From the NCBI GenBank assembly GCA_963810935.1, contig CAWEPK010000005.1:306335-370334 (forward strand): a stretch of DNA of 64,000 nucleotides, in the 5' to 3' direction. This document shows positions 50,275 through 59,405 of this stretch, one piece after another. The DNA comes from an uncultured delta proteobacterium (GTDB lineage Bacteria; Desulfobacterota; Syntrophorhabdia; Syntrophorhabdales; WCHB1-27). The position numbers were made by a program, and so were the translations under genes. Within the stretch, counting starts at the first letter, position 1. Every line of letters starts with the position of its first letter. The notes below the pieces were generated by a model. It was not told where the DNA came from. It did not search any database and saw only the letters and a program-made list of their open reading frames with translations.

Positions 50275-50496
50275 TCAAAGCATGTTCTTGACCCTGAGCT
50301 GCAATTCCAGCAGGTCCGCCTTCGTGAGCTTCAGGGAACCGTCTTTTGCGACCCTCCGCGGCCTCACCCTCTTGACCGCCTCGCGGACGGCATCCGATAT
50401 GGTAAAGCTGCTCTTCATAAAATAACTGAAGGCCCAGCTAGTGATCTCGTATTTGTCTTTCTCGGACAACCGGAAAAACCAGAAGAACGTGATCAA
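50275..50496 (-). CDS. Small hypothetical protein
   Basis: 73 aa ORF with host-like codon usage, directly upstream of malQ. Confidence 0.6.
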   Translation of the reverse strand: MITFFWFFRLSEKDKYEITSWAFSYFMKSSFTISDAVREAVKRVRPRRVAKDGSLKLTKADLLELQLRVKNML

Positions 50497-50527: not shown

Positions 50528-50567
50528 CATATTGTAGCACACGGAAGGGAAGCGAAAAAAGAGGCTT
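50528..50567 (+). repeat. Left 40-bp direct repeat bounding the island
   Basis: CATATTGTAGCACACGGAAGGGAAGCGAAAAAAGAGGCTT; 37/40 identical to 59366-59405. Confidence 0.85.
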
Positions 50568-50919
50568 GGAATTACCGGGGCGCTGAGCCCCGAAATTGCC
50601 GCTTGATCACAGCGGCAACAAAGCGGGCGCATCGCGCTAGGGGCGGTTGGCAACCTCGGGGTCGCCAGGGGACGTCCGCAAGAAGGGGTATAATCTGTGA
50701 GTTATTCGATTATTTACGATCATCCCCGTTGGCTTTCCGCACAAGTTACAGAAGTTGCCAGCATCGCCCTAACTCTGGGCGACGCGCTTTCCTGGGCATG
50801 CTTATTGCCCAGTTGCCGTCCGATTTCGCCCTATCGTGTCCGAGAAAAGCAGCGTATCGCCGATCGTTACTTTTGTTTCTAAATCGTGTATCGTAAGGAG
50901 AAGAGAACCTTGCCAAGCC

Positions 50920-50939
50920 AGTCAACTACGTCCCCTATT
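50920..50939 (+). repeat. GTCCCC-type end
   Basis: AGTCAACTACGTCCCCTATT. Confidence 0.8.
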
Positions 50940-50954
50940 CCGCGCCTCAAATTC

Positions 50955-51122
50955 ATGGCACCCATACTTATTTTTGTTATATTGCGCATTTGGACGCTAT
51001 CTCCTAAACCCGGAAGCCAGGGTGGGCCCGAGTGGTTTATCATAGCAGTTTTGGTTCTCATAGTGGTATTTCTTGCATCCTCCCTTAAACGACCCGCAAA
51101 GAAAGATAGCAAGAATCATTGA
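50955..51122 (+). CDS. Small two-TM hypothetical protein
   Basis: 55 aa, two hydrophobic helices and basic tail; lies between inward-facing GTCCCC ends. Confidence 0.5.
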   Translation: MAPILIFVILRIWTLSPKPGSQGGPEWFIIAVLVLIVVFLASSLKRPAKKDSKNH

Positions 51123-51134
51123 TTGACCATCTCC

Positions 51135-51163
51135 ATAGGGGACGTTCGTAACTTCTGTAACTT
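51135..51163 (-). repeat. Left inverted repeat of the HUH-transposase remnant
   Basis: ATAGGGGACGTTCGTAACTTCTGTAACTT; 27/29 match to rc of 51460-51488. Confidence 0.85.
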
Positions 51164-51165
51164 AT

Positions 51166-51417
51166 TCACTGTCCACTCTCCTTCTTCACCATTTTCAGCG
51201 CCGCGACGTGAGAAACCCCTAGTTGACGAGCTATCTCAGCACGGGATATTCCTTCCTGGGAAAGGCTATGAGCAATATAGGAGCGGACGCGGGTGATCTG
51301 CCTGGTGCGGTTGTGACCCCGGTCTTTATCGTTCCTGAATATCGCGCTTCGCTCGATACCACGGGCCATCACGTGATGAACAGTACAGCAGGCGTCCAGC
51401 CGGGCTTTACGGGGCAT
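51166..51417 (-). pseudogene. Internally deleted REP-associated-type tyrosine (Y1/HUH) transposase
   Basis: N-terminus MPRKARLD...HHVMARGIERSAIFRNDKDR fused in frame to C-terminal HTH (SRAEIARQLGVS); no HUH motif or catalytic Tyr region. Confidence 0.8.
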
Positions 51418-51459
51418 CACCTCTCTCCAAGAACGGCTGTTCCAGTCAGCATATCGCAC

Positions 51460-51488
51460 AAGCTACAGAAGTTACGTACGTCCCCTAT
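51460..51488 (+). repeat. Right inverted repeat of the HUH-transposase remnant
   Basis: AAGCTACAGAAGTTACGTACGTCCCCTAT. Confidence 0.85.
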
Positions 51489-51511
51489 CCAACTCGTCCA
51501 GCTCGTTCCCG

Positions 51512-51539
51512 GTCACGTTAGTCAACTACGTTCCCCTAT
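51512..51539 (+). repeat. GTCCCC-type end opening the catabolic cargo
   Basis: GTCACGTTAGTCAACTACGTTCCCCTAT; first 20 bp are a perfect inverted copy of 59285-59304. Confidence 0.85.
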
Positions 51540-51643
51540 CCGTCCTCTCACGTCCTTTTGAGCTTGGGTCATTCCCGGCCTCCCTGAACATAGATGGTCA
51601 TCCCATACTACCATACCTGTCAGGCGAAGTCGTGATATTCGCA

Positions 51644-52673
51644 CTATTCTATGCCGGCAGCAGTTTCCGTGGCGTTCTCATCTTCCGGGAATACATCTTT
51701 TTCAATCGATTTTCCTGCGGGATGCACAAATTTTACCGGCTGGTATTTCCGGGCGAAGACATTCAGCTGAAACACATCGGGACGCGCATAATGACCGACA
51801 GCGTCTATCATGTGTTTGACCCCTACTATGTTGTCAAGGTTGATATCTGCATAGGCAATCTGCTCACGATCCTCCAGAGGGCCTGCAACATAATTGCTCA
51901 TGGGATCCACAATTCCCGAAATTCCGCCGCCCGCCTCCAGGATGCCCTGATTGGCCGGGTCGAGACTCAAGGTAGAATTTCAACTCTTCATCCCCCACGC
52001 ATGAGGAAGAATATGCCACATAAACTTGGCCCTCGAACGTCATGTTCCTCATTGCGACGTCGATCACTTTTTTTCTGTCCCTCGGCTGGCTCCTGAAATT
52101 TGCTCCCGGCCACATGGCTATATGGAGTTGTTCTCCCAGGCTGTATAGAGAGTACCTTGAGAGCGGCATGGAATGTTCGTAACAAATAAGCATGCCTATC
52201 CTTCCAATTGAAGTGTCGGAGACTTGCAGGCTGGTACCATCGCCCATGCCCCAGATCGTCCTTTCTTCTCCGGTGGGCATGAGTTTTCTTCTATTGATCA
52301 CCATGGTTCCCGACTCGTCGATGAGGACTTGGCTATTATAAAGGGTTGAGGAATCCTTTTCTACGAATCCCAGAGCTATCATAATCTCATTCTTCTTTGC
52401 CGCGGCCCTTATGTAATCCATCTCCGCGGACTTAACTTCCAGAGAGTTTTGGAATTGCCTTTTGAAAAGCTCAAGCTTTTTGTTGTTGTTGATCCCCATC
52501 CATATCCACCATGGATATCCCGGAACAAACGTTTCCGGAAACACAATCAGCTTGGCGCCGTTTGACGCCGCTTCTCTTGTCATAGAGATTACTTTCTCTA
52601 TCGTTCCCTCTCTGCTGAAGAGCACCGGGGCCGCGACTGTCGTCGCTATCTTATCAATTCTAGACGTATCCAT
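51644..52673 (-). CDS. Nitrilase (carbon-nitrogen hydrolase; frameshift at ~51965)
   Basis: E-K-C triad: FPETFVPGYP, RRKLMPT, LICYEH; C-terminal DAVGHYARPDVF. Confidence 0.9.
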
Positions 52674-52756
52674 TATCTCCCTCCTATAAATTGTCTTTTG
52701 AACTACCGTGGTTCAATTTCATCGGAGTACTCCCTCCCTTAGCTCGACTCCCTGCT

Positions 52757-54022
52757 CTATTCTTCGTCGAAGCGTATACCCTTCGTCTCTGGCCCGAGAA
52801 TAAGCAGGATCAGAAACACAAGGATGGCGATTCCGCTGAACACGTAAAAGCCCGCCCCAATTCCAAATTTAGAGGCGATAATGCCTACCAGAGTGGGGGC
52901 GATGACCGCACCCGAGCGCCCTAAGCCTGTGGCGAGCCCAACCCCCGTAGCCCTGGCCGAAGTAGGAAAAAGCTCTGTCGTGTAAGCCATGGCAGGACCA
53001 AAGACGCCGAGCACAAAAAAACCCGTGAGCGGACCGACCCACAGGAGGACGACAGGAGACGTGATATATCCGTAAAGAACACTGGTCACGGCGATACCAC
53101 AAAAGTAGAACGTCATAACGGGCTTTCTCCCGAATTTGTCATTCAAGAAACCACCCACCACCTGACCGACCCACGACCCTAAAACCCACAGTGCCATGAA
53201 GCCTGTCATTTTTGCCACCGTTAGGCCCCGTTGCGTCGCAAGATAAGTGGGTGACCAGATGGCGACTCCCCAATAGCACATGAGCGCCCCGATTTGAATG
53301 ACCAGCGCAGTAAGTGTATTTCTGATCAGTTTTGGTTTGAAAAGCTCTACCAGCGTAAAAGAGTTTTTGGGAACCTGTTTTTGCGCTGCCCGACTTCTCT
53401 TCCACATTTCCGATTCCTTCAGACTTTTAATCATGAAGAAACCAGTAATGACGCCAGGTACAGCGCCCATGATAAAACATATCTTCCATCCCCATTCGCC
53501 GGCTATATCCCTATAATAGAGTCCGATTGTACCTGTGACAGCAATGGCGAGGAGAAAGCCGAGAGGGTACCCGCTGTTCATGAAACCAACCATCCTACCC
53601 CGCTTCTCAGCAGGCACATGCTCCGAAAGCATCGCGAGGCCAACGGGCCATTGTCCTCCTGTTCCCAAGCCTGCCATAGCCCTCATAATGCCGAAGGAAT
53701 ATATGTTGCTGGTAAATGCCGCGAGCCCTGTGAAAATGGAGTAAACAAAAGTCGTAATCCACAAGAGCGGTTTTCGTCCTGCGTAGTCGGCAATGACAGA
53801 GGCTATGATGCTGCCTGAGGCATGACCGATCAAGAATAGGCTTCCAATTAGTCCAAGCTGTACTGTCGTCAAGTGCCAATCCATAAGTATCCAGGGCGCC
53901 ACCATTGCGAAGATCATCTGATCTAGACCGTCAAATAGCCAGCCCAACATGGTGATGGTAAAGACCACCCACATATACCTGTTCTTCTTTTCAGAAGCCA
54001 ACGATAGGTCTGATAGACTCAT
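52757..54022 (-). CDS. MFS transporter (aromatic/organic acid:H+ symporter-like)
   Basis: GWLFDGLD, ADYAGRK, ELFPTSARATG, PETKG. Confidence 0.9.
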   Translation of the reverse strand: MSLSDLSLASEKKNRYMWVVFTITMLGWLFDGLDQMIFAMVAPWILMDWHLTTVQLGLIGSLFLIGHASGSIIASVIADYAGRKPLLWITTFVYSIFTGLAAFTSNIYSFGIMRAMAGLGTGGQWPVGLAMLSEHVPAEKRGRMVGFMNSGYPLGFLLAIAVTGTIGLYYRDIAGEWGWKICFIMGAVPGVITGFFMIKSLKESEMWKRSRAAQKQVPKNSFTLVELFKPKLIRNTLTALVIQIGALMCYWGVAIWSPTYLATQRGLTVAKMTGFMALWVLGSWVGQVVGGFLNDKFGRKPVMTFYFCGIAVTSVLYGYITSPVVLLWVGPLTGFFVLGVFGPAMAYTTELFPTSARATGVGLATGLGRSGAVIAPTLVGIIASKFGIGAGFYVFSGIAILVFLILLILGPETKGIRFDEE

Positions 54023-54231
54023 ACACCCTCCTTTAGGCAAGACTGCTTTCTGCCTCCGACTCGGACTCAGCAACCGCTCTTGGCTTACCTAGCCTTCGTT
54101 CTCGTACGAGCATATTATTAGATAATATGTATTGTCAAGATTATTATCGTAACAATAATTATGCTTTATGATCTATGTACCATTGATATATCTATAGTTA
54201 TAGATGATTACTGCGAGCTCAAAGATGTTTA

Positions 54232-54260
54232 TTGCCTATTACAATACTATTAGATATAAT
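54232..54260 (+). promoter_or_regulatory. sigma70 promoter of the CoA-transferase operon with overlapping putative operator
   Basis: TTGCCT-N17-TATAAT; 54235-54254 resembles the palindrome at 56224-56243. Confidence 0.65.
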
Positions 54261-54355
54261 TGAAAAGCAATTTAAGTATCAGGCAGCAGGGCGTTTAATG
54301 AAATAGCTATCCCTCACCGGGAACACAGAACCAACAATACACTGGAGCAAAAGAA

Positions 54356-55333
54356 ATGAACGCTTACCCTGAAATAGAAGATAAACTCATGACGCTCGAG
54401 GAAGCGGTCCGAAGATTTGTTAAGGACGGCTCCCAAATCGCCCTGGGAGGCTTTACCGTCACGAGAAGCCCCATGGCCGTAGCCTACGAAATCGTCCGGC
54501 AGCGAATAAAAGACCTCCACATCGTGTGCCACTCCCCAGGACAGGCTTTTGATGTCCTGATCGGGGCCGGGTGCGTGAAAAGGGTGGAGCTCGCGTACGG
54601 AGGAAACGGAAGGTTCGCACCCACGTGCATAAGGTTCAAAAAGGCATGTCAGCGTTCCCAAATCGAATTTGAAGACTACTCAAACTACCAGATGAGCTTG
54701 AGATTTCTTGCCGGGGCCCTCGGGATGCCCTTTGTGCCTACCAAGTCGGGGCTCGGTACCGATCTTGTCAATTTTGAAGGGTTCTCAAGGGAGACGAGGA
54801 CCCTGCGCAAAATTGCTCCCAAAAAGTACTCGTTTATGCAAAATCCTTTTAATGACAAAGAAGATCGATATGTACTCCTTCCCGCCCTTAACCCGGATGT
54901 GACTATTATCCATGCCCAGTATGTAGGGGATGACGGGACCGTAAGGATGAAGGGACTCACCTTTGCGGACATCGAAGAGGCAAAATCGGCGGATACGGTC
55001 ATTGTCACTTGTGAGGAGATCGTGCCCCGATCCTTTATCAGGCATGACCCGGACCAGAACTCCCTTCCCGCATTCTTCGTCGATGCGATTATAAAGGCGC
55101 CGTACGGCGCCCACCCCACTGCATGCTACTCATTCTATGATTATGATGCAGCTCACCTCAACCTCTACAAAAAAGTTGCTGAAGACGACGCTTTGTTCAA
55201 GGAGTATCTTGATGAATGGGTGTACGGCATACCGTCTCACGACGCATATCTCGACAAGGTAGGTGGGGCAGCCCTTATCAGGATCAAGGCAAACAGCGTT
55301 CTCGGCTATACCCCCGGACTCGACAGGAAATAA
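54356..55333 (+). CDS. CoA-transferase subunit A (glutaconate CoA-transferase GctA-like)
   Basis: IALGGF, AGALGMPFVP...GLGTDL, PDVTIIHAQ, PYGAHPT. Confidence 0.9.
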   Translation: MNAYPEIEDKLMTLEEAVRRFVKDGSQIALGGFTVTRSPMAVAYEIVRQRIKDLHIVCHSPGQAFDVLIGAGCVKRVELAYGGNGRFAPTCIRFKKACQRSQIEFEDYSNYQMSLRFLAGALGMPFVPTKSGLGTDLVNFEGFSRETRTLRKIAPKKYSFMQNPFNDKEDRYVLLPALNPDVTIIHAQYVGDDGTVRMKGLTFADIEEAKSADTVIVTCEEIVPRSFIRHDPDQNSLPAFFVDAIIKAPYGAHPTACYSFYDYDAAHLNLYKKVAEDDALFKEYLDEWVYGIPSHDAYLDKVGGAALIRIKANSVLGYTPGLDRK

Positions 55334-55348
55334 GGAGGCATAAGGCTC

Positions 55349-56104
55349 ATGAATTATACAGACAACGAAATGATGGCAATAAGCGCCGGCCGGTTCACAA
55401 AAAACGGAGACATACTCTTTGCGGGAACAGGCGTGTCCATGCTTGCAGCCACGGTTGCGAAAAGAATCTATGCACCGAAGGCAGTGGTCTTCTTTGAGAC
55501 AGGCGGCATCGATCCTTCCCTTGAGGAGATTCCCATGGCGGTTGCGGACCCCAGGGTCATGAGCGGAACGGCACTCAACTCCGGCCTGATCGAGGCCTTC
55601 TCCATCGTCGGGCACAGAAGACTCCACACAATCGCCTTCCTGGGTGCAGCCCAGATCGACAGGTACGGCAATCTGAACACTACGAGCATCGGTGACTATT
55701 ATCATCCGAAGACACGCTTCTCGGGGAGCGGAGGCGCATGCGACGTCGCTTCCTTTGCTTCGGGGGTCATCACCTTCATGCAGCACCAGAAGCGAAGGTT
55801 CGTGGAGAAACTCGACTATCGCACAAGCCTCGGGTGGTATGAGGGCGGAGATTCACGAAGTACCCTCGGTCTCGCCCGGGGAGGCGCCCTCGCGGTGGTC
55901 ACGAATCTCGGTGTGCTGAAATTCGACGACAAGACGAAGGAAGCCTATCTCGCCGAATATTATCCGGGAGTAACCGTGGAAAAAATCATTGAAAATACGG
56001 GTTTCCCTCTTGATGCGTCAAAGGCGGTAGAAGCGGTTCCGCCCTCCGCTCAGCAACTTGGAATCCTGAGAGAAGAAGTGGACCCGCAGAGACTGATACT
56101 TTAG
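55349..56104 (+). CDS. CoA-transferase subunit B (GctB-like)
   Basis: FAGTG, FETGG (catalytic Glu), LGAAQIDRYGNLN, GSGGACD. Confidence 0.9.
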   Translation: MNYTDNEMMAISAGRFTKNGDILFAGTGVSMLAATVAKRIYAPKAVVFFETGGIDPSLEEIPMAVADPRVMSGTALNSGLIEAFSIVGHRRLHTIAFLGAAQIDRYGNLNTTSIGDYYHPKTRFSGSGGACDVASFASGVITFMQHQKRRFVEKLDYRTSLGWYEGGDSRSTLGLARGGALAVVTNLGVLKFDDKTKEAYLAEYYPGVTVEKIIENTGFPLDASKAVEAVPPSAQQLGILREEVDPQRLIL

Positions 56105-56115
56105 GCGGCCGGAAC

Positions 56116-56145
56116 GGGCAGGCTCGCGATTGCCCTTTCCTTTCC
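56116..56145 (+). terminator. Possible intrinsic terminator after the CoA-transferase operon
   Basis: GGGCA...TGCCC hairpin followed by TTTCCTTT. Confidence 0.4.
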
Positions 56146-56220
56146 CCGTTTGTCGGTGTAGTGCGAAAGAGGATGGCGCCTTGTCAAGATTTCCGGCGAT
56201 AGAGGCAACGAAGATTGCTC

Positions 56221-56250
56221 TTGTCTAATAGCGTTCTATTAGGATATAAT
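56221..56250 (+). promoter_or_regulatory. sigma70 promoter of the XRE regulator with palindromic operator
   Basis: TTGTCT-N18-TATAAT containing CTAATAG-N4-CTATTAG. Confidence 0.65.
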
Positions 56251-56287
56251 TAAAAGGTATCTTAAATATAATCAGAGGCGTCGCTTC

Positions 56288-56728
56288 ATGACCATAGCTG
56301 CAAAGTTGAAAAAACTGAGAAAACTTCGAGGTCTTAGCATGACGGATCTTTCGAAGGACTCAGGCGTGCACCAGACAACGATCTCCGCAATCGAAGGAGG
56401 CAAGCACAATTCTCCAGGTATTGACACGATTGAGCGGCTGGCAAAGGCGCTTCGCATTTCTCCGCTCTATTTTTTTGAGAGCAGGATCCAAACGCCTTTT
56501 GACGTTATAGAAAATATGCCTTCAGAAATAGCGGATTTTCTGCTTCAAGCTGAGTCCCTGCCCTACCTGCTTCTGAGTAAGAAAGCCCACGACGACGGCA
56601 TATCCAGCCGGACCATTGAGAAACTTCTTCATATACTTCAGGAGAACTATAGCGAGAAATTACTCACGAAGGATATCGGTGAGTCACGGGAAAGACCACG
56701 AAGGACGTTTAAGCCAAGGAAGACCTAG
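56288..56728 (+). CDS. XRE family HTH transcriptional regulator
   Basis: LKKLRKLRGLSMTDLS...TISAIEGG...PGIDTIERLAKAL. Confidence 0.9.
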   Translation: MTIAAKLKKLRKLRGLSMTDLSKDSGVHQTTISAIEGGKHNSPGIDTIERLAKALRISPLYFFESRIQTPFDVIENMPSEIADFLLQAESLPYLLLSKKAHDDGISSRTIEKLLHILQENYSEKLLTKDIGESRERPRRTFKPRKT

Positions 56729-56745
56729 ATTGGGCGGAGGTTTTA

Positions 56746-57330
56746 GTGAAAGCAAGAATCGATGACTTCTATGGCGAAATAGAATGGATATGGACGGGAG
56801 ATGCACTTTTCATCGACGCCGACCACGGCTACATAGAGGACCTCATGCGTATTTCCTCTGACGAGATTGAGGAGTTGGTGACACTGATCCACGGGGAGAC
56901 GATCGACGCTAAGAGTCAAATTCCTCAGCTCAAGGAGCTTCATCGGAGACTCAATTATAAGTACGAACAGATTTACATCTCTGATGATAATGGTGATTAT
57001 TTCAACGCTAATGGCCAAACCAACAATATCAAGGATCGGGCCTATTTTCACGAGGTGATGAAGGGGAGTACAGTCGTGAGTGAGCCGCTGATTAACAAAT
57101 CCACAAAAAATCCTATAATCGCAGTGGCTACCCCGATCAAAAACGAAAGAAGCGTCATAGGATTGTTTGGCGTTACCGTCCTGCTTGGTTCCTCTCTCAA
57201 AGGACTGAGGTTCTTGCGCGTCACGACTTGCTCTAGAAAGAAGAAAAGCAGCAAAGGAACCAACAAGTACTGCCACAGGACTGGATTAAAGAACACTTAT
57301 ACTAAGAAAGCGGTTCAGGTCTTAAAGTGA
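56746..57330 (+). pseudogene. dCache sensor-domain remnant (no TM or output domain)
   Basis: DRAYFHEVMKG...VSEPLINKSTKNPIIAVATPI...GLFGVTV motif, then degenerate tail. Confidence 0.55.
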
Positions 57331-57729
57331 GGTTTGTTACACTCACAATCCGCAAGGGGCTGCATGCCCATCATTCCAGCTTGACGGCAGCCGTATCTTT
57401 CTGCTCGCGGATTTTGACCCGAGCCAGCCGGGAAAGAGAGCGCTTTTCTCTCCCGTTCCTCCGGGGACGCCATAGGGACACCCGTAAATACATAAATAAC
57501 TCACAGCTCATACCCATTCTCACGGGCTATTTTCTCTCCCCTTTCAACGGAGTATCCCACCGCAGGCGCAGTCACATGGGGGACATCCTATAGTTCCTCC
57601 TGTCAAGCATAAAGGGCAGTCATAACGATCTTGACGGCTTAGCTCTCCGGCCCCTTCACGCGGGTGCACCTCGCCTCTCGCCTTGTTCCGCGCTCCTTTC
57701 ATCGGTCGGCGAGTCTCTCACCTAAAAGC

Positions 57730-57880
57730 GAATCCGCGCCTCAGCGTTATCAGTATCCGGCATGCACAAAGGCCGCCTATCATCCTTTATCCAGGCTGCA
57801 TGATTCAGGTGGGAGGCCCAGGATTGTCCCACACGGGGTCTTACCGCCCCTACGTTGTTGCTCGGGCTCTCCCGCCGGAT
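57730..57880 (-). ncRNA. Predicted IS110 bridge RNA (target- and donor-binding loops); ends approximate
   Basis: Guides CAACAACGU/GGGAC match the target; UAAAGGAUG/AUAAC match the circle junction. Confidence 0.75.
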
Positions 57881-57898
57881 GGTAAATCTTTTATAACC

Positions 57899-59161
57899 CT
57901 ACTCTATGCACCCCGGATTGAATACCTCCTTCTTCTTCATGAGCGTCCAGGCGATGACTAGTAGCTTCGCCGCAAGCTTTATCCTCATCTTCATGCCTAT
58001 CCCCTTCTCTTTCTCCCTGCCTTTGAGCTTGTTCGTGAAGTAGGTCATGAACTGTCTATTTCTGGTGGAGGCGATGAGCGCAGCCTGGTAGAGGCCGTAG
58101 CGGAGGTCGGCTTTTCCCCTTTTTGAAATGACGGGTGCGACTTCTGTCCTCTTCCCGCTCCTATCCGCACTGAGATCGAGGCCGGCGAGCTTCAGCACCT
58201 GTCTGTGGTTCTCGAACCTGTAGGGATCGCCTAACGCCCCTATTACCTTCGCAGATATGTCGGGGCCGAAGCCGGGAATGCTCATAAGGAAGGGGTACTC
58301 GGCAAACCTCCTGCATACTTCCGCAATTTTCCTGTCCGTCTCCAGTATCATGATATGAAGGCCTTTAAGTCCGTCGAGGAGGGTTGATGCTTCGAAGGCC
58401 ACGGATGGATGGGCGGCGCAGCCTATAGAGACGGCCGCTTTCGAGTGGATCTCCTTAAGACGGCTTACCTGATTTGAGTTTCCAGGGGAGACCATGCGAA
58501 CTAACTCCAGGAACGTGAGGCCCGCAATCTTCTTCGGGTTGAGACAACGGACAAGATCGGAGCCTTCGGCATTATCGACGTAGGCATCCATTTCAGGGAA
58601 GTACTGGGCTATGAGATGATTCCTGATCCTGACCTTGTAGCCCTGCTGGAATTTTTTGAGTCTTCGTTTCAGAGAGAGCAGGCTCCGGAGCTCTCTGAGG
58701 TCGAACGAAGGAAGCTCATAAAAGAGGAACTTGCCCTGGATAATGAGATCGGCCACATTGGCGGCGTCCTTCGTGTCATTCTTGTCCCACCTGCCGTCTA
58801 AGAGCTCGCGATTCTTCTTGACCGCGGTGCCGGCGACGAGCACGACATGTTGACCGTGTTCGATCAGGTACTCTCCGAGTGGTTTGTGGTAATCCGAGGT
58901 AGGTTCCATTCCGAACACGACGTTTGCAAGACTGTGCTGCTTCTTGAGAATGTCCGCCTGGAAGATAAGCCTCTCGAAGCCCTCCTTGCTGTTGTCGAAG
59001 ACCAGCCTGTGCAGAAGGGTCTTACCAGCAGTGGTGCCGAAGAAGGCATGATGGCGCTCTTTGGCTATGTCCGTGCCCGCCACCAGATACTCCGTCGACC
59101 CACGAATCTCGCGCTTCAATTGACGAAACTCCCTAAGCCTGCTATCATCGGTTCTGTCCAT
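57899..59161 (-). CDS. IS110 family transposase/recombinase
   Basis: DEDD: GTDIAK, GMEPT, KNDTKDA; SIPGFG; DRSGK; ISKRGKADLR. Confidence 0.95.
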   Translation of the reverse strand: MDRTDDSRLREFRQLKREIRGSTEYLVAGTDIAKERHHAFFGTTAGKTLLHRLVFDNSKEGFERLIFQADILKKQHSLANVVFGMEPTSDYHKPLGEYLIEHGQHVVLVAGTAVKKNRELLDGRWDKNDTKDAANVADLIIQGKFLFYELPSFDLRELRSLLSLKRRLKKFQQGYKVRIRNHLIAQYFPEMDAYVDNAEGSDLVRCLNPKKIAGLTFLELVRMVSPGNSNQVSRLKEIHSKAAVSIGCAAHPSVAFEASTLLDGLKGLHIMILETDRKIAEVCRRFAEYPFLMSIPGFGPDISAKVIGALGDPYRFENHRQVLKLAGLDLSADRSGKRTEVAPVISKRGKADLRYGLYQAALIASTRNRQFMTYFTNKLKGREKEKGIGMKMRIKLAAKLLVIAWTLMKKKEVFNPGCIE

Positions 59162-59365
59162 AGAAACCTCCTTGTTAAGGGTAGTGTGATGTTGGCGCAT
59201 CACTTCCCGCATCTTAACAGGAGGTTTCTCTTTTATGGAAGAAACTGGTGTTCCTTCGACAACTCCCGGTCATGGGAATATATAACGTAGTTGACTAACG
59301 TGACTCGTCCTCCCTTCTCTGCATGATCTTTGACACGCCCGAGGTGCTGATGCCCAGATTCGCGC

Positions 59366-59405
59366 CATAGTGTAGCACACGGAAGGGAAGTTAAAAAAGA
59401 GGCTT
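59366..59405 (+). repeat. Right 40-bp direct repeat bounding the island
   Basis: CATAGTGTAGCACACGGAAGGGAAGTTAAAAAAGAGGCTT. Confidence 0.85.

Follow-up and report, generated by a model that had tools for sequence, protein, structure and literature searches.

TIRtron ends in a genomic island of an uncultured Syntrophorhabdales bacterium, with comparative evidence pointing to imprecise, one-ended capture of neighboring DNA

Introduction

The TIRtrons and their transposases, the TIRYTs, were named in 2013 (Di Nocera et al., PMC3733652). As far as the available parts of the published accounts go (PMC3733652; 10.1101/279083), they combine a Y1-type HUH transposase that has a C-terminal DnaA-like helix-turn-helix (HTH) with element-specific terminal inverted repeats (TIRs) of the form GGGGWSAS; the first of these accounts adds that TIRs also occur scattered singly, as dimers and in clusters, and that no repetitive extragenic palindromes (REPs) are involved. 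Such ends are the subject of this report: they occur in an island within the window, by which we mean the whole 64,000-nucleotide (nt) stretch analyzed here, from contig CAWEPK010000005.1 of an uncultured bacterium of the Syntrophorhabdales. TIRYT is the TnpA-Y1 subclass 2.1 of Quentin et al. (2018, 10.1101/279083), in whose survey no other group of RAYT-like HUH proteins is as large (14.9% of strains), and is elsewhere equated with RAYT group 1 (10.1101/2020.03.09.984088), the group reported to have the highest duplication rate within its family (PMC5581495). The authors who proposed that the subclass is linked to diversifying lanthipeptide loci later qualified this (10.1101/2020.03.09.984088), and binding and cleavage of TIRs by TIRYT was put forward as a future test (PMC3733652). 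Neither mechanism, breakpoint position nor cargo is described in the available parts of the TIRtron literature, whereas the loci compared here have joints 7-13 nt outside the tips, captured and duplicated DNA, co-oriented arrays, and an IS110 element that targets TIRs.

The closest solved fold is that of Escherichia coli TnpA-REP, the enzyme of the REP and BIME (bacterial interspersed mosaic element) system (PMC3333891; PDB 4er8); the accessible text of that work describes cleavage distant from the binding site, strand transfer and amplification of tandem repeats, and a sequestering of genes was predicted from it (Ton-Hoang et al., 2012, PMC3333891). TnpA-REP, however, is described as binding hairpin REPs with a GTAG tag and cutting C^T, with neither HTH nor TIRs; here no fixed dinucleotide is evident at the distal site in the mapped junction rows, and in place of the high-copy GTAG hairpin REPs that flank the gene in group 2/3 REP-RAYT systems there are 22 TIR-type ends in a genome of 4.06 Mb. 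The elements IS91 and ISCR, in so far as the source consulted covers them (PMC13181058), also use an HUH enzyme; they have one fixed end, and a missed stop at the other co-mobilizes adjacent DNA and gives tandem duplications, a behavior that the scars described below would fit. IS91 is described as lacking TIRs, its ori and ter ends being distinct, and as using a tetranucleotide as target, whereas both ends here are alike (inverted copies) and both have the offset joint. Insertion sequences (ISs) of the IS110/IS1111 type that target repeats, such as IS621 and ISPpu9, are described as using one fixed dinucleotide within a repeated element as their insertion site, as is the case here; among the literature matches listed, in so far as their text was accessible, a TIRtron end is absent as a target, whereas here it is the target in several TIR families.

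Integrons have the tyrosine recombinase IntI, the primary site attI, the promoter Pc and cassette-borne attC sites, and their cassettes move as discrete units. The outcome seen here may be alike, in that accessory and often promoterless genes stand in arrays separated by a repeated short unit; the difference is that no tyrosine recombinase, attI or cassette-borne attC was identified, that joints are imprecise and that fragments are captured. A first-pass annotation of the window had read inward-facing ends as the borders of exchangeable cassettes on an integron-like platform driven by an HUH nuclease. Comparison of the junctions leads us to regard the system as a known element family for which there is new evidence of imprecise, one-ended capture, and does not support an integron equivalent. 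Among openly accessible papers on HUH-driven cassettes or capture, we found nothing describing these junctions.

Materials and methods

The genome to which the window belongs (G000) is estimated at 93% completeness and 7% contamination; C7, C8 and the like are contigs. Ends were collected from the genomes of relatives and from 89 metagenome stretches, some of whose matches may be due to chance. Outer flanks were mapped by homology for ends with <=2 mismatches, 234 in all; 49 of these had a flank of which a copy without a TIR was available, and removal of three that repeated the same junction left 46.

Results

Identity of the ends

The ends are the TIRs of TIRtrons and of their non-autonomous derivatives, a family with a RAYT-related HUH (Y1) transposase. 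The first-pass annotation had assigned them to an HUH/Y1 enzyme, and an intact transposase with the same inverted repeats does exist: on contig C8 (G000:C8:711985-713012) a protein of 317 amino acids (aa), a Y1_Tnp transposase with a C-terminal HTH, lies between TIRs that are identical to subtype B and to each other (24/24). It matches PF01797 (E 2.7e-8) with His62 and His64 of the HUH motif and the Tyr of YIHLNP conserved, and at its C-terminus HTH_24 is over the cut-off and Bac_DnaA_C (E 0.0026) below it. A sequence search of the PDB with TIRYT gave 0 matches; the best fold match of the predicted model is TnpA-REP (4er8), with the DnaA DNA-binding domain also among the matches. By profile and fold, TIRYT has an IS200/RAYT-type HUH domain and a DnaA-like HTH. 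The enzyme of IS91 is of the Y2 class.

Both ends could be located in 21 of 40 distinct full-length relatives, and all 21 pairs are identical at 20-24 of 24 positions; the remainder have one end, meet a contig edge, or have none (four distant rows and one closer row). The end motif agrees with the published GGGGWSAS. Relatives of TIRYT are present in 31 of the 41 genomes searched, and also in named Syntrophorhabdus, Syntrophales, Actinomycetota and Elusimicrobia records. On C8, the intact TIRtron adjoins orphan RHS tips and immunity-like genes (G000:C8:713012-715500); in G002 (C24:19840-22500) the same TIRtron has been reduced to three direct ends, along with an RHS piece taken up by capture.

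In the window, debris from three TIR families (A, B and C) surrounds a nitrilase/CoA-transferase module, cargo (b) (Table 1). Most of the ends proposed in the first-pass annotation stand: the B-type tip placed near 50920-50939 (+) ends at 50935; the A-type TIRs at 51138-51163 (-) and 51460-51485 (+), 93% complementary over 29 nt, frame a Y1 remnant; the B-type end at 51512-51536 (+) and the one split by IS110 (57579-57584 plus 59285-59304, -) are both present; and the degenerate copy at 50738-50770 is a degenerate A-type TIR from 50738. The copy at about 50713-50727 is indeed an end (+), but it belongs to a separate third family, C (50697-50727, +); its partner at 57475-57510 (-) had been overlooked. 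The stretch 50667-50681 (-) has no support as an end: it lies inside a decayed transposase 3' tail, which aligns with the tails of relatives and runs into TIR-C (tip 50727).

The genome-wide motif scan proposed alongside these claims, performed with 20-mers, gives 22 sites at <=2 mismatches versus 0 for reversed seeds; counted by hand, they group into about 12 loci, nine of them low in GC, and the outer flank is below 54% GC at 18 of the 22 ends versus 14.4% of random windows. The 8-mer core has five matches in the window versus 2.44 expected, and since 14 of 100 shuffles reach five this is not above chance; ACGTCCCC by itself was rejected as evidence for ends, its frequency being no higher than chance.

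Breakpoints just outside the tips

Across 128 ends, conservation does not extend beyond the tip, apart from a weak bias at +1/+2. Homology to the TIR-free copies starts at +7 to +13 in 18 of the 46 mapped cases, at +4 to +6 in 4, at +14 in 2 and further out in 22. About one start would be expected at +7 to +13 if starts were uniform, and the 18 seen come from 12 independent loci or element families (hand count); the significance of the excess is overstated because rows share loci. Three of 37 new ends in later-fetched loci were mappable, and two of the three start at +9 and +13. Near-identical ends in different contexts share a flank of 0-13 nt in 43 of 44 pairs and of 14-45 nt in none. Tandem units, too, begin 9-12 nt outside a tip and extend inward over variable lengths (73, 341, 424, 539, 624 and 4125 bp). 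Junction microhomology is 0-8 nt, and CCC is enriched at +3 to +14 (102/224, versus 28-46 in later bins). Fold-back (hairpin) linkers were considered as a guide and rejected: two junctions are suggestive, but such linkers occur at 30 of 224 flanks versus 27 in controls.

Captured DNA and arrays

The ends mark breakpoints at which unrelated DNA is joined, whole promoterless genes included, and they lie in low-GC variable DNA, which is in keeping with the first-pass annotation. The longest tandem unit (4125 bp, L121) is a whole TIRtron with 3 kb of adjacent genes; together with the variable joints in L120, L135 and L157 it makes up scars that would fit one-ended co-mobilization, and no intermediates were seen. 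In G015 (L094) a 680-bp copy of the gltX 5' region is fused to one side of a TIRtron, whose opposite side adjoins an inverted copy of an IS that lies nearby, and in G002 (L088) a 240-bp RHS fragment stands between direct B ends. A promoterless Pro-rich open reading frame (ORF) occupies 544 bp between inward B ends in G012; its counterparts in G000, G001 and G002 have no TIR at their borders, and homology starts 12 and 9 nt from the G012 tips, a fit at 76-79% identity of which part may reflect coding conservation. Co-oriented mini-elements of 80-200 bp form arrays with cargo at G000:C7, G012:C14 and L136, and G020 has arrays of end-plus-stub units. Neighbors with the same body are co-oriented in 19/19 comparisons at 9/9 loci, the window's own locus and L153 being left out of the count. 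As far as sequence comparison can demonstrate them, we regard the position of the breakpoints, the captured pieces and the co-orientation as demonstrated. The array on C7 (G000:C7:236350-240600; L002 3351-7640) fills a gap just upstream of dnaE2 of the imu mutagenesis cluster, a hotspot with a TIRtron array.

It could be argued that all of this is passive co-location: TIRtrons and mini-elements would insert and decay in hotspots for foreign DNA, inward pairs would arise wherever two elements neighbor each other, and cargo would come by other routes (integron cassettes, phage, IS). In keeping with this, the hotspot on C7 is filled without ends in G002, the nitrilase module is without ends in G033, variable regions do not have tips at their outer edges, three TIR families are mixed in the window, and low-GC DNA beside 18 of 22 ends is what hotspots alone would give. 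The same account leaves the concentration of breakpoints at +7 to +13 unexplained, and provides no reason for housekeeping and neighboring DNA being duplicated and joined to tips or for co-orientation at all nine loci. As a general account we consider it unlikely, although it may still hold for the large module of the window.

The integron-like platform, on which TIRYT would excise and insert discrete, reusable cassettes between inward ends, fares less well, and we consider it improbable. It would fit the co-oriented arrays with cargo, the tightly packed promoterless ORFs of G012:C9 and of the window, and the nature of the cargo, which frequently consists of toxin-antitoxin, restriction or HEPN/HNH genes (and also of fragments and of whole operons with their own regulators); moreover, the genome has no integron integrase (no TIGR02249 match over the cut-off in G000). 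Yet none of 29 inward pairs is empty (<=60 nt), the shortest measuring 76 nt; no cassette was found enclosed by ends at two separate loci; capture takes in fragments no less readily than genes, and many captures lie between direct rather than inward ends. No fixed platform and no attI or Pc candidate was identified, no promoter scan having been run. Arrays of co-oriented mini-elements with cargo between them do exist, in keeping with the first-pass annotation; its exchangeable cassettes and platform are not supported, given the points above, the end-free module in G033, the end-free filling of the C7-orthologous site in G002, and the edges of the island, which are a 40-bp repeat. After some cargo ORFs (L002 6636-6700 and 7568-7620; L070 9300-9370) there are sequences which, judged by eye, may resemble the start of attC.

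An IS110 lineage inserted in TIRtron ends

The IS110 element of the window (57585-59284) splits a B-type TIR, and among its homologues GGG precedes the AC core at 12/12 other left junctions (L213-L223, L028, L029), while ACGT and a TIR-like inner part follow at 3/3 right junctions, in different TIR families. Contigs from the same soil study contain more IS110 copies, in which a different outer flank begins at the same G run. Judged from these junctions, the IS110 lineage targets the ends of TIRtrons of several TIR families; a search of the element's non-coding end for a candidate guide matching the TIR gave a single 6-mer match. The end of what we take to be a second IS recurs inside the inner part of TIRs (L008 10955, L093 6874, L139, L165 4285, G000:C17:1867), with a presumably IS1182-like transposase tail adjacent in L139. 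That IS110, an RNA-guided recombinase, or host repair at hairpin-prone TIRs does the rearranging, TIRYT merely seeding the repeats, is very improbable: these recurrent insertions and the junction microhomology would suit it, but IS110 joints lie at the AC core inside the TIR and not 7-13 nt outside it, and most loci with mapped junctions (checked for metagenome loci) show no IS110.

Layout of the island

The island (about 50568-59365, 8.8 kb) is bordered on each side by one copy of a 40-bp host sequence; in G002 and G001, where the site is empty, there is one copy instead of two. The island's outer limits are this direct repeat, and not ends. At the island site of nine further relatives there is no TIR-like end, merely two incidental 8-mer matches. 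Both edges of the island bear truncated transposase 3' tails with their TIRs facing inward, C at the left and B at the right, and the latter tail, counted together with its TIR, matches the intact C8 copy at 93% identity over 73 nt.

Table 1. Features of the island and its borders; positions are those of the window.
Feature	Position	Strand	Remarks
Left 40-bp direct repeat	50528..50567		Promoter-like host sequence, 37/40 identical to right copy
Host REP-like palindromic repeat	50577..50637		Dispersed over several contigs (blastn); unrelated to TIRs
Decayed 3' tail of C-family TIRYT gene and TIR-C	50620..50727	+	Tip at 50727, pointing into island
Degenerate A-type TIR and scrambled transposase bits	50738..50830		First codons 50782-50805 (-), HTH codons 50807-50827 (-)
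Partly decayed B-type TIR	50905..50935	+	Tip at 50935
Cargo (a), 55-aa hydrophobic ORF	50955..51122	+	19 and 15 nt away from the tips on its two sides; putative gene
Family A mini-TIRtron, non-autonomous	51135..51488	-	TIRs 51138-51163 and 51460-51485 around internally deleted transposase
B-type TIR	51512..51536	+	Tip points into cargo (b)
Nitrilase (carbon-nitrogen hydrolase)	51644..52673	-	Two pieces match 342-aa G033 orthologue at 82% and 73%; intactness probable
Major facilitator superfamily transporter	52757..54022	-	
CoA-transferase alpha and beta subunits	54356..56104	+	
XRE regulator and 194-aa Cache-like ORF	56288..57330	+	Both also in G033 module, other order
TIR-C and 3' tail of C-family TIRYT gene	57475..57577	-	Tip 57475, pointing into cargo (b)
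Outer part (tip) of IS110-split B-type TIR	57579..57584	-	Joined to internal point of C-family tail
IS110-family element	57585..59284	-	Inserted at AC of TIR; transposase 57899-59161, with about 315 nt of non-coding DNA downstream of it
Inner part of B-type TIR and 3' tail of B-family TIRYT gene	59285..59360	-	Tail 59305-59360
Right 40-bp direct repeat	59366..59405		Island's other limit

The transposase remnant of the mini-TIRtron is without the HUH motif and the region of the catalytic Tyr, and the exact pattern of this mini-element is found in one of 96 genomes, its own. For the 55-aa ORF no homologue was found by word search or in 96 genomes; HMMER gave two matches, both long proteins, one without the matched stretch and one matching on nine repeated stretches. 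Apparent frameshifts in malQ (49468), the nitrilase (51965) and rplC (59980) are one-base differences that contigs of 4/4 runs do not share (at 51965 these contigs lack one base), and are probably assembly errors; the nitrilase module is therefore probably intact.

Similar palindromic sites lie upstream of the CoA-transferase genes (54229-54279) and of the XRE gene (56224-56269), and are likely operators of the module's regulator. In G033 (L069, G033:C242, 12153-13422), periodic repeats of 141 bp occur within an 861-aa ORF downstream of the nitrilase module. Outside the island, a conserved 73-aa ORF with no Pfam match (50275-50496, -) stands beside malQ across the family, and two more copies of the rplC region (G000:C2:29609-30591 and C18:8591-9571), 96-97% identical to the window, are paralogues or contamination.

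Discussion

The reading that we favor, with a probability of roughly 0.65, is that DNA is broken and rejoined about ten bases outside TIRtron ends and that neighboring DNA is captured there in a one-ended manner. The HTH would bind the element-specific TIR, and the HUH domain would introduce a single-strand nick between a few and about 13 nt beyond the GTCCCC tip. The 3' end released in this way would then join, or prime copying from, a distal site of little sequence specificity. A distal site inside the element would give stutters, 5' stubs and mini-elements, and one beyond the other end would carry along the element with adjacent cargo; it might also lie elsewhere. A unit that starts at one tip, runs through the element and continues beyond the second tip would yield a circle or a tandem copy with the junction TIR>cargo<TIR. 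Further rounds of this, or the recombination of units of this kind into a copy already present, would build co-oriented arrays. Capture would thus be one-ended and imprecise, in the manner of IS91/ISCR read-through or of the sequestering predicted for TnpA-REP, and no exchange of cassettes at dedicated sites. The island in the window would be an old accumulation of such events, involving three TIR families and an enzyme acting in trans (C8 carries the nearest intact one), and would later have been struck by the TIR-targeting IS110; its nitrilase module was likely brought in by the ends.

Several points weigh against capture by TIRtron ends. The whole mechanism is read from scars, and neither a circle nor an empty junction was found (no head-to-head junctions in viral contigs, no empty pair among the 29); 13 viral-contig matches to a 16-mer look like chance and have no transposase nearby. 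A check for circular junctions in contigs from four soil DNA runs (one study, depth about 1-11, too shallow as evidence) turned up two joints, neither at an end nor excising cargo. The edges at the 40-bp repeat lie 60-160 bp outside the outermost tips, and the model gives no account of that repeat. All six genes of the module are also present in G033 (73-75% identity), in a different order and without ends. The site of the C7 array is filled in G002 with other foreign DNA that has none of these ends, and is empty in G001; the array at G012:C14 sits within a larger variable region of 6.9 kb, and this region does not end at tips. Since many of the loci come from metagenome assemblies, long-range order may be wrong even where junctions are real; L153, a self-palindromic contig (93%) with inverted copies, was excluded from the orientation count because it is likely an artifact. 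Finally, only 49 of 234 ends had a mappable TIR-free homologue, and rows from the same locus are not independent.

A bolder proposal is that TIRtrons are a widespread, HUH-driven gene-collecting system with mini-TIRtrons as repeated landing units, in which TIRYT, acting in trans, collects adjacent genes in the form of single-strand TIR>cargo<TIR circles and adds these to reshufflable co-oriented arrays; this would be a functional analogue of integrons free of tyrosine recombinase, and common enough for an IS110 lineage to have specialized on its ends. We consider this rather doubtful.

For the capture of neighboring DNA by TIRtron ends, the mapped scars predict that DNA is cleaved and rejoined no more than about 13 nt beyond the TIR tip and that the partner site is non-specific, and an intact enzyme with its TIRs is now in hand (G000:C8:711985-713012). 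The TIR-targeting IS110, for its part, would be a natural case of a guide aimed at the termini of another element. If the proposed capture is real, TIRtrons would be an overlooked route for the duplication of defense, toxin-antitoxin and metabolic genes and for their accumulation in islands that have no integrase.

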